IMG/VR virus record: IMGVR_UViG_3300032237_001007
Location: 47,021 to 111,020 of that record
Length of the DNA stretch: 64,000 nucleotides
Reading direction: 5' to 3' (one strand)
Source of the DNA: a virus
Lineage: Duplodnaviria > Caudoviricetes
Shown: piece by piece, positions 19,121 through 56,813 of the stretch
Position numbering within the stretch: the first letter of the stretch is position 1
Layout: every line of letters begins with the position of its first letter
The notes under the pieces: model-generated
What the model saw: only the letters and a program-made list of their open reading frames with translations
Databases searched by the model: none
What the model was told of the DNA's origin: nothing
Program-made: the position numbers and the translations under genes

Positions 19121-20467
19121 ATGGAACATATTTGCAATAATAATTCTTTTGGAGAAGGATGGTTTTCGTATCCGACTTTATATTCCGAAATGGTACAAAA
19201 ATTTCCAACAGGAAGTAGATTTGTAGAGGTAGGATCTTGGAAAGGAAAATCATCTGCATATATGGCAGTAGAAATTATTAATTCACAAAAAGATATTGAA
19301 TTTTTTTGCGTAGATACTTGGGAAGGAAGTGTAGAACATAAAGGAATGGAAGATCTTTCTTCTCTTTATGATATTTTTATCAGTAATATGTTGCCGGTAC
19401 AAGATCATTATTTTCCATTAAAAATAACTTCTTTAGAAGCGGCAAAAAAATTTAAGGATAAATCTTTAGATTTTGTATTCATTGATGCATCTCATGAATA
19501 CGAAGATATTAAAAATGATATTATTGCATGGTATCCTAAAATTAAAGAAGGTGGTGTGCTTGCCGGACATGATTTTTATGCAGAAGGTTATGATTGGTAT
19601 CCTGGAGTAAAAAAAGCGGTGAAAGAAATTCTTCCATCTTATTCAGTATCAGAAAATTGTTGGATACATTATAAAATTAAGGAAGATAAACTCAAAAACT
19701 TTCCTCCCGTTCATTTTATTAGTGTAGATTATTCTATAGAAAGAAGAAAAAGTTTATATGAAAAACTTAATAAATTTGGTATTGTAAATATTACAGAACA
19801 CATATTTGAAAAATATAAAGATGAAGATCATATAATTGAATCAGAATATAAAGATAGATTAGGTATGGGTAGTCGTGGTCCTGTTACTTCACATCTAAAA
19901 GCAATTAAAGATTGGTATCAAAATACTGATGAAGAAGTTGCATTTTTCTGTGAAGATGATTTAAGTATGGAATTAGTTCAATATTGGAATTTCACTTGGG
20001 AAGAATTTTATAATAGTATACCTGATGATTGGGAAATTGTTCAATTAGCATGGATTAGAGAAATAAGTTTTGATGCATTTAGAATTGGTTTTAGAACTCG
20101 TTGTTGGGATGATTGGTCTGGGTGTGCTTACATAATTAAAAGAAGTTTTGCAAAAAAACTTATTGATGCATATTATTATGATGAAACCTTTAATCTCAAT
20201 TTAAAAGGATCTGAAATTTATTTGAGAGATGAATGGGCAAAAATACCTGTAATTGAGACAATTATATTTTCCCCTTTGGGAGAAGTATATGGAGCACCAT
20301 TGTTTACTGAAGATTTGAGTTTTCTTCCTTCGTATAGTGATCCAAGTACTGAAGAAGGAAAATCTGAACAAATACATTATACTCATTATAAATCTTATAT
20401 GGATAACTTAAACTGGTGGAAAAGTATTGGATGTAATCAATCAATTACAGAATTTATGGGATTGTGA
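19121..20467 (+). CDS. Fusion: class I SAM methyltransferase (Methyltransf_24-like) plus GT25-like glycosyltransferase
   Basis: VEVGSWKGKS, VDTW, FIDASH.Y, GGVLAGHD; then ERR, SHLKAI, CEDD, DWEIVQL as in the 60289 GT25. Confidence 0.8.
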   Translation: MEHICNNNSFGEGWFSYPTLYSEMVQKFPTGSRFVEVGSWKGKSSAYMAVEIINSQKDIEFFCVDTWEGSVEHKGMEDLSSLYDIFISNMLPVQDHYFPLKITSLEAAKKFKDKSLDFVFIDASHEYEDIKNDIIAWYPKIKEGGVLAGHDFYAEGYDWYPGVKKAVKEILPSYSVSENCWIHYKIKEDKLKNFPPVHFISVDYSIERRKSLYEKLNKFGIVNITEHIFEKYKDEDHIIESEYKDRLGMGSRGPVTSHLKAIKDWYQNTDEEVAFFCEDDLSMELVQYWNFTWEEFYNSIPDDWEIVQLAWIREISFDAFRIGFRTRCWDDWSGCAYIIKRSFAKKLIDAYYYDETFNLNLKGSEIYLRDEWAKIPVIETIIFSPLGEVYGAPLFTEDLSFLPSYSDPSTEEGKSEQIHYTHYKSYMDNLNWWKSIGCNQSITEFMGL

Positions 20468-25393: not shown

Positions 25394-26351
25394 TGTCAAA
25401 TACATTGGACTTTTAGGATCTAGATTAGAAAAATTTAAGCAAGTAAAACCGGGTCTTTATAATTTCAGATGTCCATTGTGTGGAGATTCACAAAAGAATA
25501 AAAATAAAACTCGCGGATATTTATATGAATTAAAAAACAATACAAACTTCAAGTGTCATAATTGTGGAGCAAGCACCTCATTTAATTATTTTCTAAAAGA
25601 ATTAGATATAAATCTACATAAACAATATACTCTTGAGAAATTCAAGGATGGATTTACTGGTAAGAATTTTGTGGTTGAAGAACCAAAGTTTGAATTCAAA
25701 CAACCAGTATTTGTAAAGAAAATTGATCTTCCAAAGGCATCTGAGAATGAACTTGCAAAAAAGTATCTAGAGGATCGAAAACTTGATCCAAATCGATTTT
25801 ACTATGCTGAGAAGTTTAAAGAATGGACTAATACTCAAATTAAAATTTTTTCTAATTTCAAGTATGATGAACCAAGAATTATTATTCCTCTTCGTAAAAA
25901 AGATGGAAATATGTTTGGATTTCAGGGAAGATCTATTCTTCCCAGCAAGGTTAAATACATTACAGTTATGCTAGATAATGAGCAATTAAAAATTTATGGT
26001 TTAGATCGGGTGAATGAAAATGAAGAAGTTTATGTTACTGAAGGACCATTTGATTCAGAATTTATACCCAATTCGTTGGCAATGTGCGGGGCTGATATTG
26101 TACTTGATCGGATACATTTTCCTAATCGTACATTTATTTACGACAATGAACCCCGAAATAAAGAAATCGTCAATAGATATGAAAAGTGTATTTCCAATGG
26201 AGAAAAAGTTGTAATTTGGCCAAAGTCAGTTAAAGAAAAGGACATTAATGATATTTTTTTGACTGGACAAAATGTTATGAACATGATAAAATCAAATACA
26301 TATAAAGGATTAGAGGCAAAGGTTAAGTTCACTGAATGGAAGAAAGTATGA
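25380..26351 (+). CDS. gp61: DNA primase
   Basis: RCPLCGDS, CHNCG zinc finger; TOPRIM EGPFD, DNE, KDIND. Confidence 0.96.
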   Translation: MDLIDVKYIGLLGSRLEKFKQVKPGLYNFRCPLCGDSQKNKNKTRGYLYELKNNTNFKCHNCGASTSFNYFLKELDINLHKQYTLEKFKDGFTGKNFVVEEPKFEFKQPVFVKKIDLPKASENELAKKYLEDRKLDPNRFYYAEKFKEWTNTQIKIFSNFKYDEPRIIIPLRKKDGNMFGFQGRSILPSKVKYITVMLDNEQLKIYGLDRVNENEEVYVTEGPFDSEFIPNSLAMCGADIVLDRIHFPNRTFIYDNEPRNKEIVNRYEKCISNGEKVVIWPKSVKEKDINDIFLTGQNVMNMIKSNTYKGLEAKVKFTEWKKV

Positions 26352-29176
26352 CTATTAAGACAAAAGTAATCAAAAGATCTGGAACTCCAGAAAATCTTGA
26401 TTTAAACAAACTTCATGTAATGGTGGAAGAAGCATGTAAAGATCTTTCCGGTGTTTCCGCCTCTCAAGTAGAAATACAATCTGGTATTCAATTCTATGAT
26501 GGCATTACTACTGCAGAAATTCAAGAAATTCTCATTCGTAGTGCAAGTGATCTGATTGATTTAGATCATCCAAATTATCAGTATGTTGCTGCAAGACTTC
26601 TTCTTTTTTCTTTAAGAAAAAGTCTTTATGGAGGAATAAAAGATTTTCCTCATCTTGAACAACATATCATTAAATGTGTTGAAAAAACCGTTTATGATGA
26701 TCAAATCTTTGCGAAATATTCAAAGGAAGAACTTGATAAGGTAAATAGTTTTATTGATCATGATCGTGATATGCTCTTTACTTATGCTGGTCTTCGTCAG
26801 GTCGTTGATAAGTACTTAGTTCAGGACAGAAGTAGTGGAAAGGTATATGAAACTCCTCAGTTCATGTACATTATGATTGCTCTTACTATCTTTTCCGAAT
26901 ATCCAAAAGAAAATCGCCTAGATTACGTTAAAAGGTATTATGATGCAATCTCCAAGCACAAAATCAACATTCCTACTCCAATCATGGCAGGTGTTAGAAC
27001 CCCACTTCGCCAATTTGCAAGTTGCGTTCTTGTTGATGTTGATGACACCCTTGACAGTATCTTCAGCTCTGATATGGCTATTGGTAGGTATGTTGCTCAA
27101 AGAGCAGGAATTGGTATCAATACAGGTCGAATCCGTGGCATCAACAGTAAAATCAGAGGTGGAGAAGTTCAGCACACAGGTGTTATCCCTTTCCTCAAAA
27201 AGTTTGAAGCAACTGTCAGATGTTGCACTCAAAATGGCATCCGTGGTGGATCAGCAACAACACACTTCCCAATCTGGCACCAAGAAATAGAGGATATTCT
27301 TGTATTAAAAAATAATAAAGGAACCGAAGATAATCGGGTTCGTAAGTTAGACTACTCTATTCAAATCAGCAAGTTATTCTATGAAAGATTCATCAGTAAT
27401 CAAGAAATCACACTCTTCTCTCCACACGATGTTCCTGGTCTGTATGATGCTTTTGGCACTGATAGATTTGACGAGTTATATGTATCTTATGAACGAAATA
27501 CAACTATTCCAAGAAAAACTATCGGTGCTCAAGAACTCTTTTTGGAACTCCTAAAAGAACGTGCAGAAACTGGTCGTATTTACATTATGAATATTGATCA
27601 CTGTAATTCTCATAGTTCTTTTAAGGATCAGGTTACGATGAGCAATCTTTGTGTTGCTGGTAATACAAAGATTAGAATCAAGTATCCAGAATCTGTTGGA
27701 GACCAATATAGTGTTTGGTATTGGAATGTTGTTGAAGAAGAGATTGAAATTGAAGACTTGGATCAATATATTATTGATAGAGAATGTAGAATTAGTTATT
27801 ATGCAGCATATGAAGGAGACCCTTGTGTGGATGTTCCTCAAATAGAAGTTCTTTCTTATAATACAGAAACTAATCAACAAGAATGGGCACCTATTACAGC
27901 ATTTGCCGAAACATCACCAAAAGCAAAGGTAATGAAAATTACTGATGAAGAAACTGGTAAGATTATTGTTGTAACACCAGAACATAAAGTATTCACTAAA
28001 AATCGTGGATATGTGATGGCAAAGGACTTGGTTGAAACTGATGAGTTGGTGCTTGCATCTAACGAAAAAACTTCTACTCTTATACTTGAATACCTTGAAG
28101 AAGAAATTCCAGTTTATGATATTACAGTAGAAGGAACTCATAATTTCTTTGCAAATGATATTCTGGTTCATAATTGCCAAGAAATTACTTTGCCAACTGT
28201 TCCTCTTCAACATATTGACGATGATAATGAGGCGGCAATTGCAACCTGCATTCTTTCAGCAATTAATGTGGGTAAAGTTAAGTCTGATGAAGAACTTGAA
28301 GAACTTTGTAATCTTGCCGTTCGTTCATTAGACGAATTGATTGATTATCAGGATTATCCAGTTAAAGCAGCAGAAAACTTCACAAAACGTCGTCGTGCTC
28401 TTGGAGTAGGTTTTATTGGTCTTGCTCATTATCTTGCTAAACTTGGATTTAATTATGATTCTCAAGGTGCTTGGGATGCAGTTCACGGACTTTCAGAGTC
28501 GTTTCAGTATTATCTTCTAAAATCTTCAAATCAACTTGCGAAGGAAAAAGGACATTGTGAATATTTTAGTCGTACAAAGTATGCCGATGGTATTCTTCCA
28601 ATTGATACTTATAAAAAAGATGTAGATGAAATTTCTTCAATTTCATATCAACACGATTGGGAACATTTAAGACAAGATATTCTTCAATATGGATTAAGGC
28701 ATTCTACATTATCCGCTCAGATGCCATCAGAATCTTCTTCAGTTGTTTCTAATGCTACAAATGGCATAGAACCTCCTCGTGGATATTTGTCCATTAAGAA
28801 GTCCAAAAAGGGTCCTCTGAAACAAATTGTCCCACAATATAATACTCTAAAAAATAATTACACTCTTCTTTGGGATATGAAGAGCAATCGTGGATATATT
28901 AATATTGTTGCAGTTATGCAGAAGTTCTTTGATCAAGCAATTTCTGGAAACTGGTCTTATAATCCACAAAATTATGAAAATAATGAAGTTCCTGTTAGTG
29001 TAATGGCACACGATATGCTTTATTCTTATTCTGTTGGTTGGAAAACAAGTTATTATCAAAATACTTATGATATTAAAACTGATGAAGTAGTAGAAGAACC
29101 AAAACAAGACCTTCAATCACTTCTTCAAGAACTCTCTAATTCCGATGAAGAAAGTTGTGAAAGTTGTAAAATTTAA
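26348..29176 (+). CDS. nrdA: Class Ia ribonucleotide reductase large subunit, intein-containing
   Basis: ATP cone, PTPIMAG, QFASC, SNL[intein]CQEI, MPSESSS, C-terminal CESCKI. Confidence 0.97.
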   Translation: MTIKTKVIKRSGTPENLDLNKLHVMVEEACKDLSGVSASQVEIQSGIQFYDGITTAEIQEILIRSASDLIDLDHPNYQYVAARLLLFSLRKSLYGGIKDFPHLEQHIIKCVEKTVYDDQIFAKYSKEELDKVNSFIDHDRDMLFTYAGLRQVVDKYLVQDRSSGKVYETPQFMYIMIALTIFSEYPKENRLDYVKRYYDAISKHKINIPTPIMAGVRTPLRQFASCVLVDVDDTLDSIFSSDMAIGRYVAQRAGIGINTGRIRGINSKIRGGEVQHTGVIPFLKKFEATVRCCTQNGIRGGSATTHFPIWHQEIEDILVLKNNKGTEDNRVRKLDYSIQISKLFYERFISNQEITLFSPHDVPGLYDAFGTDRFDELYVSYERNTTIPRKTIGAQELFLELLKERAETGRIYIMNIDHCNSHSSFKDQVTMSNLCVAGNTKIRIKYPESVGDQYSVWYWNVVEEEIEIEDLDQYIIDRECRISYYAAYEGDPCVDVPQIEVLSYNTETNQQEWAPITAFAETSPKAKVMKITDEETGKIIVVTPEHKVFTKNRGYVMAKDLVETDELVLASNEKTSTLILEYLEEEIPVYDITVEGTHNFFANDILVHNCQEITLPTVPLQHIDDDNEAAIATCILSAINVGKVKSDEELEELCNLAVRSLDELIDYQDYPVKAAENFTKRRRALGVGFIGLAHYLAKLGFNYDSQGAWDAVHGLSESFQYYLLKSSNQLAKEKGHCEYFSRTKYADGILPIDTYKKDVDEISSISYQHDWEHLRQDILQYGLRHSTLSAQMPSESSSVVSNATNGIEPPRGYLSIKKSKKGPLKQIVPQYNTLKNNYTLLWDMKSNRGYINIVAVMQKFFDQAISGNWSYNPQNYENNEVPVSVMAHDMLYSYSVGWKTSYYQNTYDIKTDEVVEEPKQDLQSLLQELSNSDEESCESCKI
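27650..28174 (+). mobile_element. Mini-intein (175 aa, no endonuclease) in nrdA
   Basis: Starts CVAGNT, block B VTPEHKVF, block F VYDITVEGTHNFFAN, ends ILVHN followed by Cys. Confidence 0.95.
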
Positions 29177-48154: not shown

Positions 48155-49105
48155 ATGTATAAAGGAAAAAAATTAGTTGCATGTTCTCCTGTAGGAAGAA
48201 AGTCCTCAATGAAGTGCTTGTTCAAACATATATTAAATAATAAACATGTTTTAGATGAATTTCATTTGTGGGTTAATACTATAAATCAAGAAGATTTGGA
48301 ATATATTAATAGTTTTGCAAATCAGTATCCAGATTTTGTTCATTTAAAATATGGATGTGACAAATTAGATCCGGATCAAATGGGAAAATCTCATAATGTA
48401 AAAAGATTTTATAATTATTGCACAGAATCAGATACTTTTTATTTTAAGATAGACGATGATGTTATTTTTATTGAAGATGGAACTTTTGAAAAATTAGCAC
48501 AATATAAAATAGATAATGCCGAAACCTTTCTTACATTTCCAATTATAATCAATAATCCTTGGTCTACTCATTTTCTTAGAATAAATGGTGTAATTGATGT
48601 ACCAGAATGCTCAGTGTGTACTTATACTTGGAAATATGATTTTGAAAAATCTAAAGAATTAATTAAATCATCATCTTCTATAATGAGTGATAATTTATAT
48701 GAACCTAAATTAGAAGATTTTATACCAGAAGATCGAGTTATAAGTAAGTTATATTGTTTTGATTCACATCTGGCATATAATTTACTAAATGAATTTTATA
48801 AAAAAATTATTGAGGATGAATTATCTAGTTTAGATATTGGTAATATTGTACTTGATAATTATGAAACGGTATGTATTAATTTTGTTATGTGGGCAGGAGA
48901 AGATTTTGCAAAATTTAATGGTGATGTAAAATCAGTTGGCGATGAACCTTGGTTAGCAACTTTTTATCCATGTAAATTTGGTTTAAAAAATTCTATAGTA
49001 GGAAACACTAGAGTTGTTCATTATGCTTTTTGGCCTCAAAGAGATTATTTAAATACTACAGATATCATGGAAAAATATAAAAACCTTTTGGAGATAGAAG
49101 TATGA
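48155..49105 (+). CDS. Putative GT-A glycosyltransferase
   Basis: PVGR, FKIDDDVIFI, IINN, GDE, VVHYAF. Confidence 0.65.
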   Translation: MYKGKKLVACSPVGRKSSMKCLFKHILNNKHVLDEFHLWVNTINQEDLEYINSFANQYPDFVHLKYGCDKLDPDQMGKSHNVKRFYNYCTESDTFYFKIDDDVIFIEDGTFEKLAQYKIDNAETFLTFPIIINNPWSTHFLRINGVIDVPECSVCTYTWKYDFEKSKELIKSSSSIMSDNLYEPKLEDFIPEDRVISKLYCFDSHLAYNLLNEFYKKIIEDELSSLDIGNIVLDNYETVCINFVMWAGEDFAKFNGDVKSVGDEPWLATFYPCKFGLKNSIVGNTRVVHYAFWPQRDYLNTTDIMEKYKNLLEIEV

Positions 49106-49827
49106 ATTTCGTTGTTTTTCATCAAGCTTATAAAAATTCAAAATCCACTGAATTTGTTATAAAATCTTTTAGAAAATTTCATCCTAACGTCCCATATGTT
49201 TTATGGTCCGATAATGGAGATGATTATTCTCATTTGGTTGAAAAGTATAATATTGATTATATTTTTTCCGACTATCGTGTTGGATTGTTTATGTATGATG
49301 GAAAAAGACAAATTTTTAATTTCTTTGACAGAATTAAAAAATCTTGTGAAATGTATCCAGATAAACCATATGTAATGTATATGGAGGATGATGTATTGAT
49401 TAAAGGTAAAATAAAAATTCCAGATGGTGTAGATTTTTGTGGATGGGACGACATTGGAAATAATTTGGTGCATAGATTTGGGATTGAGAAATTTCAAGAG
49501 ATATGTAAAAAATATAACGTGAATCCAAATTTTGATTATTACACTACTGCCGGTGGAGCAATACTATCTTCAGATATCTTTCTCAATAAATTTGATATTA
49601 TTGAAAGATATATTAATGAAGATTATGAAGAAATTCAAAAGGCATGTAAAGAAATACATCCTGGTTTTGAAAGTATTTTTTATTGTGATATTGAAATTAT
49701 GATGCTACATTTAATTTGTGATAAAAAATATTCAGTATGGGAACAAATTTGTGATCTTACAAAAAATCCAAATTGGAATAGTGATCAATATTGCGTGGTT
49801 CATGCATTTAAAGAACATTATAATTAA
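49102..49827 (+). CDS. Putative GT-A glycosyltransferase
   Basis: SDNGDD, YMEDDV, GGA, VVHAFK. Confidence 0.6.
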   Translation: MNFVVFHQAYKNSKSTEFVIKSFRKFHPNVPYVLWSDNGDDYSHLVEKYNIDYIFSDYRVGLFMYDGKRQIFNFFDRIKKSCEMYPDKPYVMYMEDDVLIKGKIKIPDGVDFCGWDDIGNNLVHRFGIEKFQEICKKYNVNPNFDYYTTAGGAILSSDIFLNKFDIIERYINEDYEEIQKACKEIHPGFESIFYCDIEIMMLHLICDKKYSVWEQICDLTKNPNWNSDQYCVVHAFKEHYN

Positions 49828-49829
49828 TT

Positions 49830-50939
49830 ATGAGCATTAAAAAAAAATACGATTATTTAATCGTTGGTTGTGGTTTATTTGGAGTAACCTTTGCAAGACT
49901 TGCTACTGATTTTGGAAAATCTTGCTTAATAATAGACAAGAGAAACCATATTGCAGGAAATTGTTATTCTGAAAAAATTGAAGGGATTAATGTTCATACT
50001 TATGGTCCCCACATTTTTCATACTAGTAACAAATTAGTGTGGGATTTTGTAAATAGATTTTCTGAATTTAATAATTTTATCCTATCACCAAAATCCTATT
50101 ATAAAGGAAAATTGTATTCTCTTCCTTTTAATATGAATACTTTTTATGAAATGTGGAATACTATTACTCCAAATGAAGCTAAAAAAGTAATAGAAAGTCA
50201 AAAGTTTAAAGGAATTCCTAAAAATTTAGAAGAACAATCATTATCTCTTGTTGGAAAGGATATCTATGAAACTTTAATAAAAGAATATACAATTAAGCAG
50301 TGGGGTAAAGATCCTAAAGATCTTCCCTCTTTTATTATAAAAAGACTTCCCCTTAGGTTTACTTTTGACAATAACTATTTTAATGATAAGTATCAGGGAA
50401 TTCCTATTGGTGGATATACTCAAATGTTTGAAAAAATGCTTGATGGTATAGAAGTTAGATTAAACATTGATTATTTTTCCGATCTAAATTATTTTGATAA
50501 TATTGCCAATAAAATTGTATATACTGGATGTATTGACCAATTTTTTAATTATGAGTATGGTGAATTAGAATATCGTTCGTTGGAATTTTTACACAAAATT
50601 TTAGACACTGATAATTATCAGGGAACTGCAGTGATTAGTTGTCCAGAAAAGGAGATTCCATATACTAGAATTGTTGAACATAAACATTTTGAGAATTCTA
50701 ATTCATTAAAAACTGTAATCACTGAAGAATATCCAAAAACTTACAGGCAGGGATTGATACCTTATTATCCTATTAATGATGATATCAACCAAAAAGTATA
50801 CAAAAAATATAAAGAAAAGTCTAAAGTATTGACAAATTTTATATTTGGTGGTAGATTATCAGAATATAAGTATATGGATATGCATGTAGTTATTGAATCT
50901 GCAATGAATAAATTTAAAACTCATAATAATCTAATATGA
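49830..50939 (+). CDS. glf: UDP-galactopyranose mutase
   Basis: VGCGLFG, HIAGNCY, YGPHIFHT, QGIP..GYT, TRIVEHKHF, PYYP, GRLSEYKY.DM. Confidence 0.96.
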   Translation: MSIKKKYDYLIVGCGLFGVTFARLATDFGKSCLIIDKRNHIAGNCYSEKIEGINVHTYGPHIFHTSNKLVWDFVNRFSEFNNFILSPKSYYKGKLYSLPFNMNTFYEMWNTITPNEAKKVIESQKFKGIPKNLEEQSLSLVGKDIYETLIKEYTIKQWGKDPKDLPSFIIKRLPLRFTFDNNYFNDKYQGIPIGGYTQMFEKMLDGIEVRLNIDYFSDLNYFDNIANKIVYTGCIDQFFNYEYGELEYRSLEFLHKILDTDNYQGTAVISCPEKEIPYTRIVEHKHFENSNSLKTVITEEYPKTYRQGLIPYYPINDDINQKVYKKYKEKSKVLTNFIFGGRLSEYKYMDMHVVIESAMNKFKTHNNLI

Positions 50940-51676
50940 AAATAGCATTATGTTTATCCGGACAACCTAGATTTGTTTCCGAATGTTCTTCATCAATACT
51001 TCAAAATGTGTGTAATGGATATGATGTAGATGTATTTGCTCATACTTGGTTTGATGAAGAACTTTTAAGTAAACCATATAAGATTGAGAATAATTGGCCT
51101 TCTCAGAGAATATCTCCAGATGCTGTTAATCAAATAAATGATATATATAAACCGGTTTCACATAAAGTGGAACCGAGTATGAAATTCAAAGATCCTAAAA
51201 TTGATTATTCAAAATCTTGGACAAGATACTGTGGGTGGGGAGAACAGACTGAAGAATTTTATAATTTTATAATCAGTAATCAAATATCATATTTTTATAG
51301 TCTAAATCAAGTTAATATTCTTAAAAAACAATATGAATATAAAAATGGATTTAAATATGATTGGGTAGTTAAGTGCAGAACAGATTCAATTGTTCATACT
51401 AAAATTCAATTTGAAAAATATAATCCAAATGTGATTAATTATACTGGAATTAATAATCAACCGGATGGAATGATTTGTGATTGGTTTGATTTCGGAGGAT
51501 CTAAAGTTATGGATGTTTTTATGAGTGCTTTTTCAGTATATGATTTCCCCCTTACAGAATGTATTGAAAGTAATGATGGAGCATTTTGTCCCGAATTAAT
51601 TCATAGAAAAATGATTGATTTTTTTGGAATAGATAAGCAGGATCATCAAATTCATATTACTTTACCTAGATTTTAA
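50936..51676 (+). CDS. Putative glycosyltransferase (MKIALCLSGQPR family), copy 1
   Basis: SGQPR, HTW, YDWVVKCRTD, D.F.FG. Confidence 0.6.
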   Translation: MKIALCLSGQPRFVSECSSSILQNVCNGYDVDVFAHTWFDEELLSKPYKIENNWPSQRISPDAVNQINDIYKPVSHKVEPSMKFKDPKIDYSKSWTRYCGWGEQTEEFYNFIISNQISYFYSLNQVNILKKQYEYKNGFKYDWVVKCRTDSIVHTKIQFEKYNPNVINYTGINNQPDGMICDWFDFGGSKVMDVFMSAFSVYDFPLTECIESNDGAFCPELIHRKMIDFFGIDKQDHQIHITLPRF

Positions 51677-52407
51677 TGAATATTCTTATACCAATGGCGG
51701 GTGAAGGAACTAGATTTCCTAAAGATACCTATAAAGTTCCAAAACCGTTAATCAATATAAATGGGGTTCCAATGATTCAGAGAGCAATTGAATCCTTGGG
51801 ATTGGTTGGAACTTATCATTTTGTAATTCGTAAAGATAGTTATTATGATCAGGTCTGTACATTATTGCACTCTATTTTTCCAAACGTAAAAATTATCAGT
51901 GTTGATCAAACAACTGAGGGTCCAGCATCAAGTTGTCTTCTATTCAAAGATTTTATTAATAATGAAGAAGAATTGGTAATTGCAAATTGTGATCAAATTA
52001 TGTGGTGGGATGCTGAATTGTTTTTAACAACTGCAAGATATTATAAGTATGATGGTTTAATTGTGACTTACAGCACAACAACCCCCAAAAATAGTTATGC
52101 TAGAATTGACATAAATGGGTTTGTTCAAGAAATCAAAGAAAAAGAAGTGATTAGTGATATATCTTTAAATGGTATTCATTATTGGAGAAAGGGAAAGTAT
52201 TTTGTACAAAGTACTGAAAATATGATAGAATATAATGATAGAGCACCTAATGGTGAGTTTTATGTTGGTCCAACATATAATTATATGATTAAATCTGGTC
52301 TTAAAGTTGGAATACATCATATTCCAAATTATCAACACAATCCAGTTGGAGTTCCTGATGATTTAAATTCATTTTTAAAAAAATATGAACATAACAAAAA
52401 TTACTGA
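51676..52407 (+). CDS. Sugar-phosphate nucleotidyltransferase-like protein
   Basis: IPMAGEGTRF...PKPLI, T.GPA, NCDQ, EIKEK, NGEFYV. Confidence 0.85.
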   Translation: MNILIPMAGEGTRFPKDTYKVPKPLININGVPMIQRAIESLGLVGTYHFVIRKDSYYDQVCTLLHSIFPNVKIISVDQTTEGPASSCLLFKDFINNEEELVIANCDQIMWWDAELFLTTARYYKYDGLIVTYSTTTPKNSYARIDINGFVQEIKEKEVISDISLNGIHYWRKGKYFVQSTENMIEYNDRAPNGEFYVGPTYNYMIKSGLKVGIHHIPNYQHNPVGVPDDLNSFLKKYEHNKNY

Positions 52408-52711
52408 TTATGTGAGAGGTTGGTTTATTGGAAACTTTGAACCATCTCTTTTGAAAACAAAAGATTTTGAAGTTGGTGTATTAACTCATAAAAAAGGAGA
52501 ACATTGGGCACCGCATTATCATAAAGAAAGTATAGAATATAATGTTCTTATTTCTGGAAAAATGACCGTTCAGGAAAAAGAGTTAAATAGTGGAGATGTA
52601 TTTGTATTCCAGAAAGGAGAGATTGCAGATCCAATTTTTCTTGAAGATTGTACATTAGTTGTTGTTAAAGTTCCGTCCATTCCATCTGATAAATTTGAGG
52701 TTGAACAATGA
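52385..52711 (+). CDS. Cupin-domain protein
   Basis: GWFIGNFEP, HYH...EYN..ISG, GDVF, VVKVPS...DK. Confidence 0.8.
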   Translation: MNITKITDYVRGWFIGNFEPSLLKTKDFEVGVLTHKKGEHWAPHYHKESIEYNVLISGKMTVQEKELNSGDVFVFQKGEIADPIFLEDCTLVVVKVPSIPSDKFEVEQ

Positions 52712-53946
52712 AATTTTTTAGAGAATTAACTGAATATGAAAGAGATCGTTGCGTAGTCGCAACATATTACATTGAAGCATACTCTGAAATTGGAACACTG
52801 AGAGATGCTGCTTGGAACCTTGCGATTGGGCAAAGTGTAGGCAATCCAAAAGTTCGTAATCGTTGGGAGAGTGATGAACTCTTTGAACTTGCATCTTGTG
52901 TCATTTATGATGATGAACAAGAACTTTCAGAGAAATATGTTGGTGAGGTAAAGATTGGTTTTCCCAAAGTCAATACTGACTGGGAAGGTGATGGTATTTC
53001 ACATCTTCTCTGTCAGTTGATGGGAGGTCAACTGGATATTGATGTATTCAAGGTTTGTCGTCTTCAAAAACTGGAATTTCCTGCTGATGTAGAGGCACAA
53101 TTCCTTGGTCCCAAGAATGGAATTGATGGCATTCGTAAGTTTGTCAATCGTTATGATAAACCACTCTCTGGTGCGATTGTAAAACCCAAGACAGGTATTT
53201 CACCACAAACTCTTTCTGAGATGGTGAAAGAACTTCTGGATGGTGGTGTAGATTTCATTAAAGAAGATGAAATTCTTTCTAATCCTTCATTCTGCCGTCT
53301 TGAAGATCGTGTAGAACTGATTTCAAATATTGTGAATAATTGTGGAAGAAATGTAATTTATACCTTCTGTATTAACGGAGATCATCATACCATTCTTAAT
53401 CGTGCCAAGTTTGTTGCTGATAATGGTGGGAATGGTATTCATATCAACTTCTGGTCTGGTCTGGGAGTTTATAACTCTGTGAGAAAGATGGATCTTCCTC
53501 TGTTTATTCACTATCAAAAGAGTGGTGATAAGATCCTTACAGACAAGAGACACGCATTTGGAATAGATTGGGATGTTCTTTGTGATCTTGCTGGTCTTTG
53601 TGGAGTTGATACCATTCACGCAGGAATGTGGGGTGGTTATTTAAGTGATGATGAGAATGAACTTCGTCAAACGATGGCAACACTTCATAAGAGAAATGTT
53701 CTTCCAGCATTAAGTTGTGGAATGCATCCAGGCATTGTGAATACGACCGCAGAGAAGTTTGGTACTGATTTCCTTGCTAATTGTGGTGGTGCCATTCACG
53801 GGCATCCTGGAGGCACTCTATCTGGTGCTTTGGCTATGAGGCAGTCAATTGATAAAACTCCCGGACCTGAGTTTCGTGCTGCTATTGATAAATGGGGTTA
53901 TGAAACTGGTGGAGGTTCTCTTCCAGAATGGGTATTGGATTTTTGA
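52708..53946 (+). CDS. RuBisCO-like protein (form IV, large-subunit fold)
   Basis: GP..GI.GIR, IVKPKTG, GGVDFIKEDE, DTIHAG, LSCGMHP, GGAIHGHPGG..GA.AMR; lacks several carboxylation residues. Confidence 0.92.
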   Translation: MKFFRELTEYERDRCVVATYYIEAYSEIGTLRDAAWNLAIGQSVGNPKVRNRWESDELFELASCVIYDDEQELSEKYVGEVKIGFPKVNTDWEGDGISHLLCQLMGGQLDIDVFKVCRLQKLEFPADVEAQFLGPKNGIDGIRKFVNRYDKPLSGAIVKPKTGISPQTLSEMVKELLDGGVDFIKEDEILSNPSFCRLEDRVELISNIVNNCGRNVIYTFCINGDHHTILNRAKFVADNGGNGIHINFWSGLGVYNSVRKMDLPLFIHYQKSGDKILTDKRHAFGIDWDVLCDLAGLCGVDTIHAGMWGGYLSDDENELRQTMATLHKRNVLPALSCGMHPGIVNTTAEKFGTDFLANCGGAIHGHPGGTLSGALAMRQSIDKTPGPEFRAAIDKWGYETGGGSLPEWVLDF

Positions 53947-53948
53947 TT

Positions 53949-54437
53949 ATGAAAATTATTGCACATAGAGGAAATCTTGATGGACCAAATCCATTAAGAG
54001 AAAATAGTCCAGACTATATTGATGAAGCAATTGAAGCAGGATTTGATGTTGAAATTGATTTGAGACATAAGGATCATCAGTTTTATTTGGGGCACGATGA
54101 TCCACAATATCATATTCCTATGACTTGGTTAGTCAAAAGAAAGGATAAACTTTGGATTCATTGTAAAGATTTAGAATCTTTAGATGTCATTTCTAGCAGT
54201 CCTGTTGATTTTCATTACTTTTGGCACGAAAATGATAGATACACATTAACAAGCAAAGGAATTGGATGGGTTTTAGTTGGTCAATTCCCATTTAAAAAAT
54301 CTATTGTAGTTCTTCCAGAAACCATCAATTATTATGATAAGTATGGAGAGTCTTATGATAGAATATTAAATACAATGGGTATTTGCACCGATGTCTGTAA
54401 TTTTTATAAAAAACAATTGGAGGAATTAAACAAATGA
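53949..54437 (+). CDS. Glycerophosphodiester phosphodiesterase/PI-PLC-like protein
   Basis: IIAHRG, EN, VEID, LGHD, HCK, GICTD. Confidence 0.8.
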   Translation: MKIIAHRGNLDGPNPLRENSPDYIDEAIEAGFDVEIDLRHKDHQFYLGHDDPQYHIPMTWLVKRKDKLWIHCKDLESLDVISSSPVDFHYFWHENDRYTLTSKGIGWVLVGQFPFKKSIVVLPETINYYDKYGESYDRILNTMGICTDVCNFYKKQLEELNK

Positions 54438-55075
54438 AATGGGAAACTGATCTTACTAAAGATATTAGAAGTAATACGGAACATGATTATACTGAAGCCG
54501 GTATAAATCACTTTTTACATATTTGGCCAGGAATACCTAATGACCCTGGAGTATATAATCCATATAATGGAAAAGAATGTACCGAATGTAATAAATCAGC
54601 ACTATTAGAACAATTTCTTAAAGTTAGAGATAATGCCAAAGCAATTTTAGAAATTGGTATTGGTCGTAATGGCGTAGATTCTTTTGCTCATGTGTTTTTC
54701 TCAAATAAAAAAGATGAAACTAAGTATGTCGGAATTGACATAGAAGACCGTAGTTGGTTAGTTGATTGTGGAGATAACATTTATACAATTCAAGGTAGTA
54801 GTTCAAACTATGAAGAAAATGTAGAAATTTTCAAAACCATGGGTATAGATAAATTTGATTTTATTTTTATTGACGGCGATCATAGTGTAAATCAAGTACT
54901 TCTTGATTGGGAATATTCTCGTCTTTTAAATGATGGTGGAATTGTCGGATTTCATGATACAAGTCATCATACTGGTCCATATCTATTTGTGAGAAATTTA
55001 AATACTGATATTTGGGATGTAGTTGTAAATGCTTGTCCCGAAGATTATGGAATTGGATTTGCAACTAAAAAATAA
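54434..55075 (+). CDS. Class I SAM methyltransferase (Methyltransf_24-like)
   Basis: ILEIGI, GID, FIDGDHS, GGIVGFHD. Confidence 0.85.
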   Translation: MKWETDLTKDIRSNTEHDYTEAGINHFLHIWPGIPNDPGVYNPYNGKECTECNKSALLEQFLKVRDNAKAILEIGIGRNGVDSFAHVFFSNKKDETKYVGIDIEDRSWLVDCGDNIYTIQGSSSNYEENVEIFKTMGIDKFDFIFIDGDHSVNQVLLDWEYSRLLNDGGIVGFHDTSHHTGPYLFVRNLNTDIWDVVVNACPEDYGIGFATKK

Positions 55076-55077
55076 TT

Positions 55078-56094
55078 ATGAATTATTTGGAAACTTTAAA
55101 AAAAAAATATAAAGTTATTATTTGGGGATTTAAACCAAATTCCCAAGGTATTTTTAAAAATACTGTAGGATATGTTTGGAAAGGATTTTATAATGGATTT
55201 AAGGCTTTGGGTTTTGATACTTATTGGTTTTCTGATGAAGATTATGACCCATCTTTAGATTATTCTAATTGTATTTTTATTGTAGAAGCTTGGGATAGTA
55301 ATAAAATACCACTCAATAAGAATTCCATCTATTATGTACATTGTGCATATGATCCATCAAAATATATTGGAAAAGTTGGAAAATTTATTGATCTGAGATA
55401 TAATCAAAAATATATGCGTAATCCTAATTATAATTTTGATAGAAATAAGAGTGATGATATTAAATTAGGACCATGCTGTTATTATCAAGAATCTACGAAT
55501 AAAATCATTCACTTAAAAAATCAATTTGTGGATTATGATATTGAAGATTTTGATAAAATTTATATCAGTTGGGCAACAGATTTATTACCAGATCAAATGA
55601 ATGAAGATGATATTTTTCTGGAAAGAGAAAATCTAATAGTATTTTTAGGCACAATTTATTATGATCACTATACAAATATTCCAGAGATTAATGAATTTGG
55701 AGAAGTTTGTAAAAAAAATCAAGTAAATTTTTTGGTGAATCCATATTCATTTGGTCCGGATCAAATATCTAGTGACGATTATATTTCATGCTATAAAAAA
55801 TCTTTGTTTGGATTAGATTTACGTGGACAAGACAATATAAAAACTGGTTATATTCCGTGTAGAGTTTTCAAAAATGCTAGTTATGGTCTGTTAAGTACTA
55901 CTAATTCTGATGAAATATATAATGAAATGGAGGGACATTGTGTATATAATCCTTCAGTAAGTCAATTATTTTATGATGCCATGGAAAAAAGAAATGATTT
56001 TGATTTTATTAAAAAGTCATTTAATTATGTGAAAGAAAATCATACTTATATCAATAGAGTTACAAGTATTTTGAAAATTCTAGAAGGATCTTAA
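55078..56094 (+). CDS. Putative GT-B glycosyltransferase
   Basis: YIPCRVFKNASYG, VKENHTYINRV C-terminal motif. Confidence 0.7.
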   Translation: MNYLETLKKKYKVIIWGFKPNSQGIFKNTVGYVWKGFYNGFKALGFDTYWFSDEDYDPSLDYSNCIFIVEAWDSNKIPLNKNSIYYVHCAYDPSKYIGKVGKFIDLRYNQKYMRNPNYNFDRNKSDDIKLGPCCYYQESTNKIIHLKNQFVDYDIEDFDKIYISWATDLLPDQMNEDDIFLERENLIVFLGTIYYDHYTNIPEINEFGEVCKKNQVNFLVNPYSFGPDQISSDDYISCYKKSLFGLDLRGQDNIKTGYIPCRVFKNASYGLLSTTNSDEIYNEMEGHCVYNPSVSQLFYDAMEKRNDFDFIKKSFNYVKENHTYINRVTSILKILEGS

Positions 56095-56096
56095 TC

Positions 56097-56813
56097 ATGA
56101 AAGTAGCATTTTGTTTTGCCGGACAACCACGAGATGTTAGAAATACTCTGGATAATATTAAAAAATCTTGGGGAACACATCAGGAATTAGATTTCTTTTT
56201 TCATTCTTGGATTCCAAATAAAGAAGGTCCATATAGAATAGACACTCCATCAGATGTGTATACTAACGATATTAACGATTATGTTTTGAATAAATTAAAT
56301 CCTGTAAAATATGAATTCGAAAATCAAATAATTTTTTCAAATTATTATTCAGATTCTGTTCATTGGCCAATTCGTAGCAACAACATTCCAAATCCATCTC
56401 AGAATATTCAATCATTTTTTTATTCAATTAAGAAAAGCAATGAATTGAAAAAGCAATATGAAATTGAGAATAACTTTAAATATGATTGTGTAATTAGATG
56501 TAGATTTGACTACTTATTCACAAAAGTGTATAATGTTAATGACTTTGATTTAAATTATTTGAATGTAAAAAACGATTGCAAACATACTGAATATGCAATC
56601 AATGATCACATTGCATTATCTAATAGTGAAAATATGGATTTATATTCCACGGTATTTGATAATATACCAGAACATTATAGTAATGGTATAGAATTCAATA
56701 CTGAAGTTATTCTTGGATACAATGCCTACATTAATGGATTAAAATATCATAAAACCTTGGGAGACAATGAAGAATCATATGTCTCGACAAGATACGAAAG
56801 ATCTAGAATTTAA
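56097..56813 (+). CDS. Putative glycosyltransferase (MKIALCLSGQPR family), copy 2
   Basis: AGQPR, HSW, YDCVIRCRFD, NDH. Confidence 0.6.
   Translation: MKVAFCFAGQPRDVRNTLDNIKKSWGTHQELDFFFHSWIPNKEGPYRIDTPSDVYTNDINDYVLNKLNPVKYEFENQIIFSNYYSDSVHWPIRSNNIPNPSQNIQSFFYSIKKSNELKKQYEIENNFKYDCVIRCRFDYLFTKVYNVNDFDLNYLNVKNDCKHTEYAINDHIALSNSENMDLYSTVFDNIPEHYSNGIEFNTEVILGYNAYINGLKYHKTLGDNEESYVSTRYERSRI

Follow-up and report, generated by a model that had tools for sequence, protein, structure and literature searches.

The RuBisCO-like protein (RLP) encoded in a 64,000-nucleotide stretch of viral DNA, here called the window (bases 47021-111020 of the 111-kb IMG/VR virus record IMGVR_UViG_3300032237_001007), belongs to a clade that is coupled to a sugar nucleotidyltransferase (NT). 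RLP and NT are the universal core of a gene cassette shared by viruses and cells, and a small cupin is an RLP-specific partner. On balance, and with modest confidence, we favour the reading that an enolising RLP of isomerase or epimerase type and the cupin supply a rare sugar phosphate, that the NT converts this into a nucleoside diphosphate sugar (NDP-sugar), and that proteins of the DUF7796 family, with a predicted GT-A glycosyltransferase fold, pass it on to a glycan. In the window the cassette comprises four genes:

51676-52407, + strand: sugar-1-phosphate nucleotidyltransferase of 243 aa, 4EVW/'BcbE-like' subfamily, matched by Pfam NTP_transferase
52385-52711, + strand: small metal-type cupin of 108 aa, with cupin motif 1; Pfam match sub-threshold
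52708-53946, + strand: RLP of 412 aa, 'form IV-like' clade, matched by PF00016
53928-54437, + strand: mini GDPD-like phosphodiesterase of 169 aa, from its GDPD signature and AlphaFold model

From gene to gene the overlaps within this run are 23, 4 and 19 nt, and the run itself overlaps the upstream open reading frame (ORF; 50936-51676) by 1 nt and the downstream ORF (54434-55075) by 4 nt, all on the + strand. The run at 51676-54437, flanked by glycosyltransferase and methyltransferase genes, had been picked out in an earlier reading of the sequence (the original prediction), and the ORF coordinates and Pfam matches bear this out.

The RLP matches PF00016 (RuBisCO_large) at 2.5e-42 and 145.6 bits, against a cut-off of 30.1, and is thus a member of the superfamily. 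It falls below all the NCBIfam equivalog cut-offs, scoring 197 bits against 497 for type III, 102 against 489 for form II, 152 against 700 for OiaX, and 162 against 409 (NF007095) and 121 against 513.6 (TIGR03332) for the two MtnW models. It was aligned with C. necator CbbL (form I), a Cereibacter form II enzyme, four OiaX-type RLPs and nine further members of its own family, taken from SAR11, DPANN, the Candidate Phyla Radiation (CPR), Legionella and others, making ten family sequences in all. In form I numbering the RLP retains K175, K177, the carbamylation and Mg triad K201/D203/E204, H327, S379, G381 and G403. E60 is replaced in all ten family sequences, where the loop reads IGQSVGN, and six further substitutions are equally uniform: N123 to G, T173 to I, H294 to Q, H298 to D, K334 to Y and G380 to C. 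Position 404, a glycine in form I, is A or S in nine family sequences and W in the Balneola protein. Loop 6 and the distal site have been rebuilt with invariant aromatic and histidine residues (W, Y, H); the changed distal site includes Q294, K295, D298, W331, Y334 and C380.

Because K175, K201, D203 and E204 are kept and E60, N123, H294 and K334 replaced, the predicted proton-abstracting, enediolate-stabilising core is intact in this alignment, and the protein has lost the residues that CO2 addition, hydration and C-C cleavage require. Judged by the loss of the latter four residues, the protein is not a bona fide form I-III RuBisCO. Most of the residues that had been assigned by eye agree with the alignment, both those kept and the losses of E60, N123, H294 and K334. 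Two details need correction: R295, which had been listed as lost, is conservatively replaced by K in nine of the ten sequences, including that of the window (Balneola keeps R), and the histidine of the 'HYQK' motif aligns with H292 of form I. No match to rbcS (PF00101) was found anywhere in the 111-kb record, itself estimated to be 57% complete, in agreement with the earlier reading.

Two groups of named RLPs invite comparison. MtnW/YkrW and the R. rubrum methylthioribulose-1-phosphate (MTRu-1-P) 1,3-isomerase resemble the window RLP in fold, in the Mg/carbamate core and in not carboxylating. They act on ketose-1-phosphates in methionine salvage, and there too a phosphoesterase and a cupin follow downstream. 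Unlike them, the window RLP lies far below the MtnW cut-offs, falls in a separate clade, has no mtn genes nearby and is partnered by an NT in glycan loci. The earlier view that the protein is neither carboxylating nor an MtnW therefore holds, both on residue losses and on model scores. OiaX (3-oxo-isoapionate-4-phosphate decarboxylase) and its relatives, the nearest named group in the tree, are likewise non-carboxylating, acting on sugar-acid phosphates. They differ in being catabolic, in adjoining four-carbon acid sugar kinases, none of which was seen among the annotated neighbour families of the RLP loci, and in keeping H294, R295 and K334, which are replaced in the window family.

The original prediction came with a proposal to place the RLP in a tree of forms I-IV. 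In a quick maximum-likelihood tree, 45 family sequences fall together with 100% SH-aLRT support, and the clade that they make up is distinct from the form I, II and III-like enzymes as well as from the OiaX-type RLPs. Inside the clade with the window RLP are the RLP of a Beckwithbacteria metagenome-assembled genome (MAG; 48% identity) and those of many IMG/VR myovirus-type contigs. The family may correspond to the IV-GOS clade. Novel RuBisCO groups were reported in the GOS data (Yooseph 2007). Phage RLPs are already in the literature: Jaffe, Castelle, Dupont and Banfield (bioRxiv 10.1101/386292; MBE 2019) reported about 90 'form IV-like' examples, leaving their function open. These lie on IMG/VR Myoviridae-type contigs, group with Beckwithbacteria and diverge from the named RLP clades; as matched by this published description, the window RLP is a member of that phage/Beckwithbacteria clade. 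The available passages of that work do not report the linkage to NT, cupin and GDPD, the fusions, or the range across SAR11, Legionella and DPANN.

The clade is carried by at least 236 IMG/VR viral contigs. A tblastn search of 50,697 deposited phage genomes with the RLP gave no match, and the mini-GDPD is the only part of the cassette with relatives there. The comparison of loci covered 80 of viral origin (RLP identity 57-97%) and 47 in GTDB species genomes. The cellular carriers include Pelagibacter (one of them a complete genome), Crocinitomicaceae, Saprospirales, Planctomycetes and Verrucomicrobia; Beckwithbacteria, Saccharibacteria and Woese-, Nano- and Micrarchaeota; and Azospirillum, Turneriella, Francisellaceae, three Legionella species and Tatlockia. 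A 4.6-kb contig assigned to a Methanobacteriota MAG (L082) bears a full NT-cupin-RLP-mini-GDPD cassette with an RLP 84% identical to that of the window; this RLP nests among phage sequences, and the contig is probably a mis-binned phage. One Woesearchaeota genome (G001:C2:52772-53644; L099) has a bona fide form III-like RuBisCO (298 bits) as well as a form IV-like RLP.

All neighbouring ORFs were clustered across 128 loci. The RLP is present in 127 of them and the NT in 117, each time within 3 kb of the RLP. This linkage spans viruses, SAR11, Bacteroidota, CPR, DPANN and Legionella, and holds down to 35% RLP identity. The mini-GDPD follows with 87 of the 128 loci, the cupin with 77 and DUF7796 with 49; a Methyltransf_24 gene occurs in 31, in 29 of these within 3 kb of the RLP. 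Glf, GT6, GT11 and the C-methyltransferase of the window each recur in at most 15 loci. It is this difference, between an NT in 117 loci and other window neighbours in 15 or fewer, that identifies RLP and NT as the core. The coupling of the RLP to a nucleotidyltransferase in glycan loci had been predicted, and the genes do occur together, both in other phages and in the surface-glycan loci of bacteria and archaea. The prediction of a uniform four-gene pathway fared less well: the specific unit is RLP, NT and cupin, and the GDPD-like gene accompanies glycan enzymes in general, as an accessory.

The place of the cupin in this unit comes from a reciprocal scan with the cupin family, which found 507 viral stretches. 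Among the best 80 loci, which were inspected, one ends at the cupin and the 79 others all have RLP and NT, so that the cupin is an RLP-specific partner.

The coupling of the RLP to its partners is clinched by natural fusions. Two proteins of 813 and 817 aa (P0125 and P0126) are RLP-NT-cupin triple fusions, with the RLP at 1-390, the NT at 398-637 and the cupin at 711-815. A 548-aa protein (P0136) matches both PF00016 and the mini-GDPD profile and is apparently an RLP-mini-GDPD fusion, and in P0127 the RLP is joined to an uncharacterised domain, whose family is found just upstream of the NT in viral loci. The order NT-cupin in the triple fusions is also that of ManC/AlgA-type proteins, the type II phosphomannose isomerase/GDP-mannose pyrophosphorylases (PMI-GMP). 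Together with phosphomannomutase these form a comparable set of sugar-1-phosphate NT, metal cupin and sugar-phosphate supplier, and the profile matches of the NT include GDP-mannose pyrophosphorylases. In the present cassette, by contrast, an RLP takes the place of the phosphomutase, and the cupin is only weakly PMI-like.

The make-up of the cassette varies. One SAR11 lineage has a compact island, mini-GDPD-NT-RLP-NT-DUF7796, between thyX and mrp/hflKC, which implies a self-sufficient module with a common metabolite as its starting point. In this island (L111:7219-7959 and L108:7217-7954) the first NT paralogue has no GxGTR loop, reading PVAGPN instead, and may be non-catalytic or changed in function. 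In the Legionellaceae the conserved unit is LicD-RLP-NT, in four genomes (three Legionella and Tatlockia), and in DPANN loci a full-length GDPD (PF03009) and a second NT stand in place of the mini-GDPD. Minimal modules contain no kinase or mutase. In nine viral loci (for example L036:7200-9300 and L076:7235-9300) the genes after the RLP encode an APH/fructosamine-kinase-like (MtnK-like) kinase and a sugar-phosphate cyclase resembling 3-dehydroquinate synthase, which suggests a variant pathway. No paper linking an RLP to nucleotidyltransferase, capsule, O-antigen or LicD systems was found in the literature searched.

The NT matches NTP_transferase (PF00483) at 1.6e-8 and 34.9 bits (cut-off 21.2) and is a member of this family. 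It keeps the motifs GxGxRF, PKP, CDQ and EKE..SN..G.Y; residues G9, G11, R13, K23-P24, D106, E155-K156, S160 and G166 are invariant or nearly so. The best PDB match of the family profile is 4evw, an uncharacterised V. cholerae protein (3e-36), followed by GMPPB, RmlA, HddC and GlmU. By its sequence, then, the NT has the pattern of a glycosyl-1-phosphate nucleotidyltransferase.

The cupin has a perfect motif 1, G(X5)HXH(X4)E(X6)G, with H44, H46 and E51, of which H44 and E51 are invariant. It has no motif-2 histidine, and the Pfam families Cupin_7 and Cupin_2 remain sub-threshold (22.6 against 27). Its profile gives weak, remote matches to a quercetinase cupin (9e-6) and a 113-aa 'mannose-6-phosphate isomerase' (2.6e-4), and database look-ups with the cupin and with DUF7796 returned unnamed viral clusters only. 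It is probably a metal-dependent sugar isomerase or epimerase. A different role would follow if RLP and cupin were an enolase/dioxygenase pair like MtnW and MtnD, shortening a diketo-sugar phosphate oxidatively to an acid that is then nucleotide-activated. The H-x-H...E metal motif and the quercetin dioxygenase as best PDB profile match would suit this, and methionine salvage, in which an RLP, a phosphatase and a cupin act in series, provides a precedent. Against it, the cupin has no equivalent of the fourth histidine of acireductone dioxygenases, the NT resembles a glycosyl-1-phosphate NT, and the cupin cassette occurs in CPR bacteria (Beckwithbacteria, Patescibacteria and Saccharibacteria), which are mostly anaerobes and so argue for an isomerase or epimerase rather than an oxygenase. 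We therefore regard an oxidative pair as decidedly improbable.

The genomic context also narrows the choice of substrate. Known RLPs act on methylthio-ribulose-1-phosphate derivatives, and the RLP and Aldolase_II families share MTRu-1-P/5-deoxy-ribulose-1-phosphate as a substrate class. The MtnK-like kinase behind the RLP in nine viral loci was a further reason to consider such substrates. Five cellular carriers were checked for phosphoribulokinase (PRK), and none of the five genomes has a clear one; the Pfam PRK family, which also takes in small P-loop kinases of other kinds, uridine kinase among them, matched strongly in Legionella (142 bits) and weakly and partially in Pelagibacter (33 bits). 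The complete Pelagibacter genome has no isomerase of the IF-2B family (MtnA or ribose-1,5-bisphosphate isomerase), and searches of a SAR11 single-cell genome and of the Beckwithbacteria MAG did not find one either. With both enzymes missing in SAR11 carriers, MTRu-1-P/5-deoxy-ribulose-1-phosphate and ribulose-1,5-bisphosphate (RuBP) were rejected as universal substrates. For the same reason Calvin-cycle intermediates, which the original prediction had suggested as a source, cannot be the general one, and a link to that cycle is at most a special case of cyanophages.

This bears on another account of the RLP, in which it would serve the carbon or sulphur metabolism of the host as an auxiliary metabolic gene, either as a methionine-salvage-type enolase/isomerase or by draining or binding RuBP so that the Calvin cycle shuts down, with glycan genes as its neighbours by chance. 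Cyanophages do carry auxiliary genes for the Calvin cycle and the pentose phosphate pathway, known RLPs use substrates of the MTRu-1-P type, and both phosphate-site regions of the RLP are partly kept (K295, H327, G381, G403). Chance is nevertheless hard to reconcile with NT linkage in 117 of 128 loci and with RLP-NT-cupin fusions, in non-phototrophs and phages alike. The low MtnW scores, the loss of all carboxylation and cleavage residues, and the pattern of IF-2B isomerase and PRK just described point the same way, and make such a role very improbable indeed.

A jumbo-phage cassette without an RLP (L138:6243-9941) provides an analogy. It encodes a PRK-like kinase, an NT, a mini-GDPD::Aldolase_II fusion, a HAD protein (HAD_SAK_2) and WavE, and the Aldolase_II domain occupies the place that the RLP would have. 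The class II aldolase/epimerase family includes metal-dependent enzymes acting on ketose phosphates, and the cassette is thus consistent with a keto-sugar phosphate as the class of substrate for the RLP.

The remaining components of the proposed pathway are the transferases and the enzymes adjacent to them. In the window these are, besides the mini-GDPD:

50936-51676, + strand: DUF7796 / 'SGQxR' protein, putative GT-A-fold glycosyltransferase (PF25072 at 1.1e-7)
54434-55075, + strand: S-adenosylmethionine (SAM) methyltransferase, Methyltransf_24 (Pfam, 1.4e-7), often found with the mini-GDPD
56097-56813, + strand: second DUF7796 / SGQxR paralogue (PF25072 at 3.1e-6)

The two DUF7796 genes share one BLAST cluster. 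An AlphaFold2 model of the first has a pLDDT of 91.7, and its top Foldseek matches are the GT6 alpha-1,3-galactosyltransferase, GTA/GTB, BoGT6a and glycogenin (E about 3e-7, TM about 0.48). In place of a classical DxD, the family shows an invariant R-x-D together with further Asp residues. On these models DUF7796 proteins are plausible users of NDP-sugars, as putative GT-A glycosyltransferases.

The mini-GDPD matched no Pfam or NCBIfam family. It has the GDPD signature IAHRG, EN, E-x-D and GHD, with H13, R14, N26, E42, D44, H56, H78 and K80 invariant, in 169 aa as against about 240 for a GDPD. Its AlphaFold2 model has a pLDDT of 93, and the top Foldseek matches are all GDPDs, with TM 0.46-0.59 and E only about 1e-2. 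A profile search found it in 109 longer proteins, fused to HAD/beta-phosphoglucomutase-like domains, HAD-NT, P-loop kinases, SAM methyltransferases, class II aldolase and RLP, and also to DUF7796, WavE, GT61 and GT-D glycosyltransferases. The methyltransferase fusions (384-394 aa, 58-70% identical to the window mini-GDPD) are the fused form of the pair at 53928 and 54434. With so many other glycan enzymes as partners the mini-GDPD is not RLP-specific, and from its sequence relationships we read it as a general accessory of such glycan systems, for tailoring or for handling phosphodiesters, outside the RLP core.

In cultured Synechococcus phages that have no RLP, the mini-GDPD adjoins HAD-NT genes. 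In phages B3 (L129) and DSL-LC03 (L130), for example, the adjoining gene encodes a 457-461-aa 'glucose-1-phosphate thymidylyltransferase', which we infer from its size and a homologous Pelagibacter gene to be a HAD/beta-phosphoglucomutase-like-NT fusion. This kind of protein was considered as a simple stand-in for the RLP and rejected, as it co-occurs with the RLP in some loci (L015, L084). Homologues of the mini-GDPD (P0196 and P0200, 390 aa) also occur in proteins annotated from the chytrids Geranomyces michiganensis and G. variabilis.

On the basis of these observations we propose the following scheme. The RLP, dependent on Mg2+ and a carbamyl-lysine, would enolise a keto-sugar phosphate from general metabolism and release an isomer or epimer, with no carboxylation. 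The dedicated cupin would carry out a linked isomerisation, helping to supply an uncommon sugar phosphate, which the dedicated sugar-1-phosphate-type NT would turn into an NDP-sugar. The GT-A-fold DUF7796 would finally attach the activated unit to a glycan of the surface or the virion, a step that in Legionella would fall to the LicD phosphotransferase, and the mini-GDPD with its methyltransferase would tailor the product as accessories.

Several points weigh against this scheme. The reaction class and substrate of the RLP clade, the order of RLP before NT, and the destination of the glycan, on the virion or on the host surface, are all inferred. The tree on which the clade is defined is a quick one, built without MtnW, IV-Photo or DeepYkr references. 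The cupin matches in Pfam and PDB are weak, and its chemistry may be that of an oxygenase. LicD in Legionella points to the logic of NDP-alcohol or phospho-transfer and not to that of glycosyl transfer. Finally, an enolising enzyme is not obviously the source of the anomeric sugar-1-phosphate that the NT signature suggests, and this poor fit makes it possible that the NT acts first.

If the NT came first, it would act on a common keto-sugar phosphate, RLP and cupin would isomerise or epimerise the resulting NDP-ketose, and LicD or a GDPD-type enzyme would transfer the product as a phospho-sugar or polyol. The conserved LicD beside RLP-NT in four Legionellaceae genomes would fit well, as would the minimal modules with neither kinase nor mutase, the linkage of GDPD-type enzymes in most loci, and the full-length GDPD and second NT in DPANN. 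The invariant W, Y and H residues in the rebuilt loop 6 and distal site could hold a nucleotide, and CDP-ketoses have precedents in AbpA, which makes CDP-xylulose, and in the C. jejuni HS:5 enzyme, which makes CDP-6-fructose. There is also a resemblance to the Lic1 system (GlpQ GDPD, LicC NT and LicD), with which the RLP loci share a GDPD-family protein, an NTP_transferase-type NT and, in Legionella, LicD; they differ from it in having RLP and cupin, in having no choline kinase or transporter, and in mostly having DUF7796 for LicD. Set against this order are the EK..SN..G.Y sugar-1-phosphate pattern of the NT, whose solved relatives are all glycosyl-1-phosphate NTs, and the GT-A-like glycosyltransferase fold of DUF7796. 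Nor do we know of any RuBisCO-family enzyme that uses a nucleotide-linked substrate, so that the family offers no precedent. We consider this order unlikely, if still worth serious attention.

In a more novel reading the RLP itself would replace a phosphomutase. From a ketose-1-phosphate or ketose-1,n-bisphosphate it would make a glycosyl-1-phosphate by way of a phospho-enediol, perhaps epimerising the sugar as well. The inputs would be compounds available in every cell, fructose-1,6-bisphosphate or sedoheptulose-1,7-bisphosphate, or RuBP in cyanobacteria, and the reaction would be the reverse of the MtnA/ribose-1,5-bisphosphate isomerase type. We hold this to be a doubtful proposition. If true, it would lead directly from central or Calvin-cycle bisphosphates to a rare NDP-sugar with no kinase, mutase or NAD-dependent step; the RuBisCO fold would gain a new class of reaction, and nucleotide-sugar metabolism a new route of entry.

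The contig from which the window comes is a T4-like cyanomyovirus. Its DNA polymerase is T4-type (gp43) and 85% identical to the enzyme of Synechococcus phage S-SRM01, and it also encodes a class I ribonucleotide reductase and a DnaB-like helicase. The large subunit of the reductase (window 26336-29176, 946 aa) is matched by its PHROG in two stretches, 3-446 and 581-946; a region between them, at about 504-572, is weakly like a helicase PHROG and may be an intein or an insertion. A 448-aa protein (window 19121-20467) combines an N-terminal DNA-methyltransferase-like part with a C-terminal match to a glucosyltransferase PHROG, and may be a DNA-modification fusion.

The glycan island around the cassette spans about 43.7-61 kb of the window, with all genes on the same strand. 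It contains genes for epimerases, Glf (UDP-galactopyranose mutase), glycosyltransferases (two GT6, GT11 and GT4-like ones), a sugar C-methyltransferase and further methyltransferases. Two of its genes, of 338 aa (55078-56094) and 241 aa (49102-49827), matched no Pfam or NCBIfam family, and the former recurs near the RLP in eight loci.

To our knowledge, all characterised RLPs work in salvage or catabolism. With a clade wired, and in places fused, to a sugar nucleotidyltransferase, the RuBisCO fold would also have a part in biosynthesis, in the making of surface glycans; the clade bears, too, on the evolutionary reuse of the enolisation chemistry of RuBisCO. The problem is experimentally tractable: among the carriers, Legionella maceachernii, L. 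nautarum, L. drozanskii and Pelagibacter sp. Uisw_094 are in culture, and the triple fusion found in nature offers an assay system in a single protein. Since the clade is widespread in viruses and cells, its product may be common, though so far unrecognised, in the glycans of marine and freshwater microbes and viruses, and may matter for how phages and hosts recognise each other.

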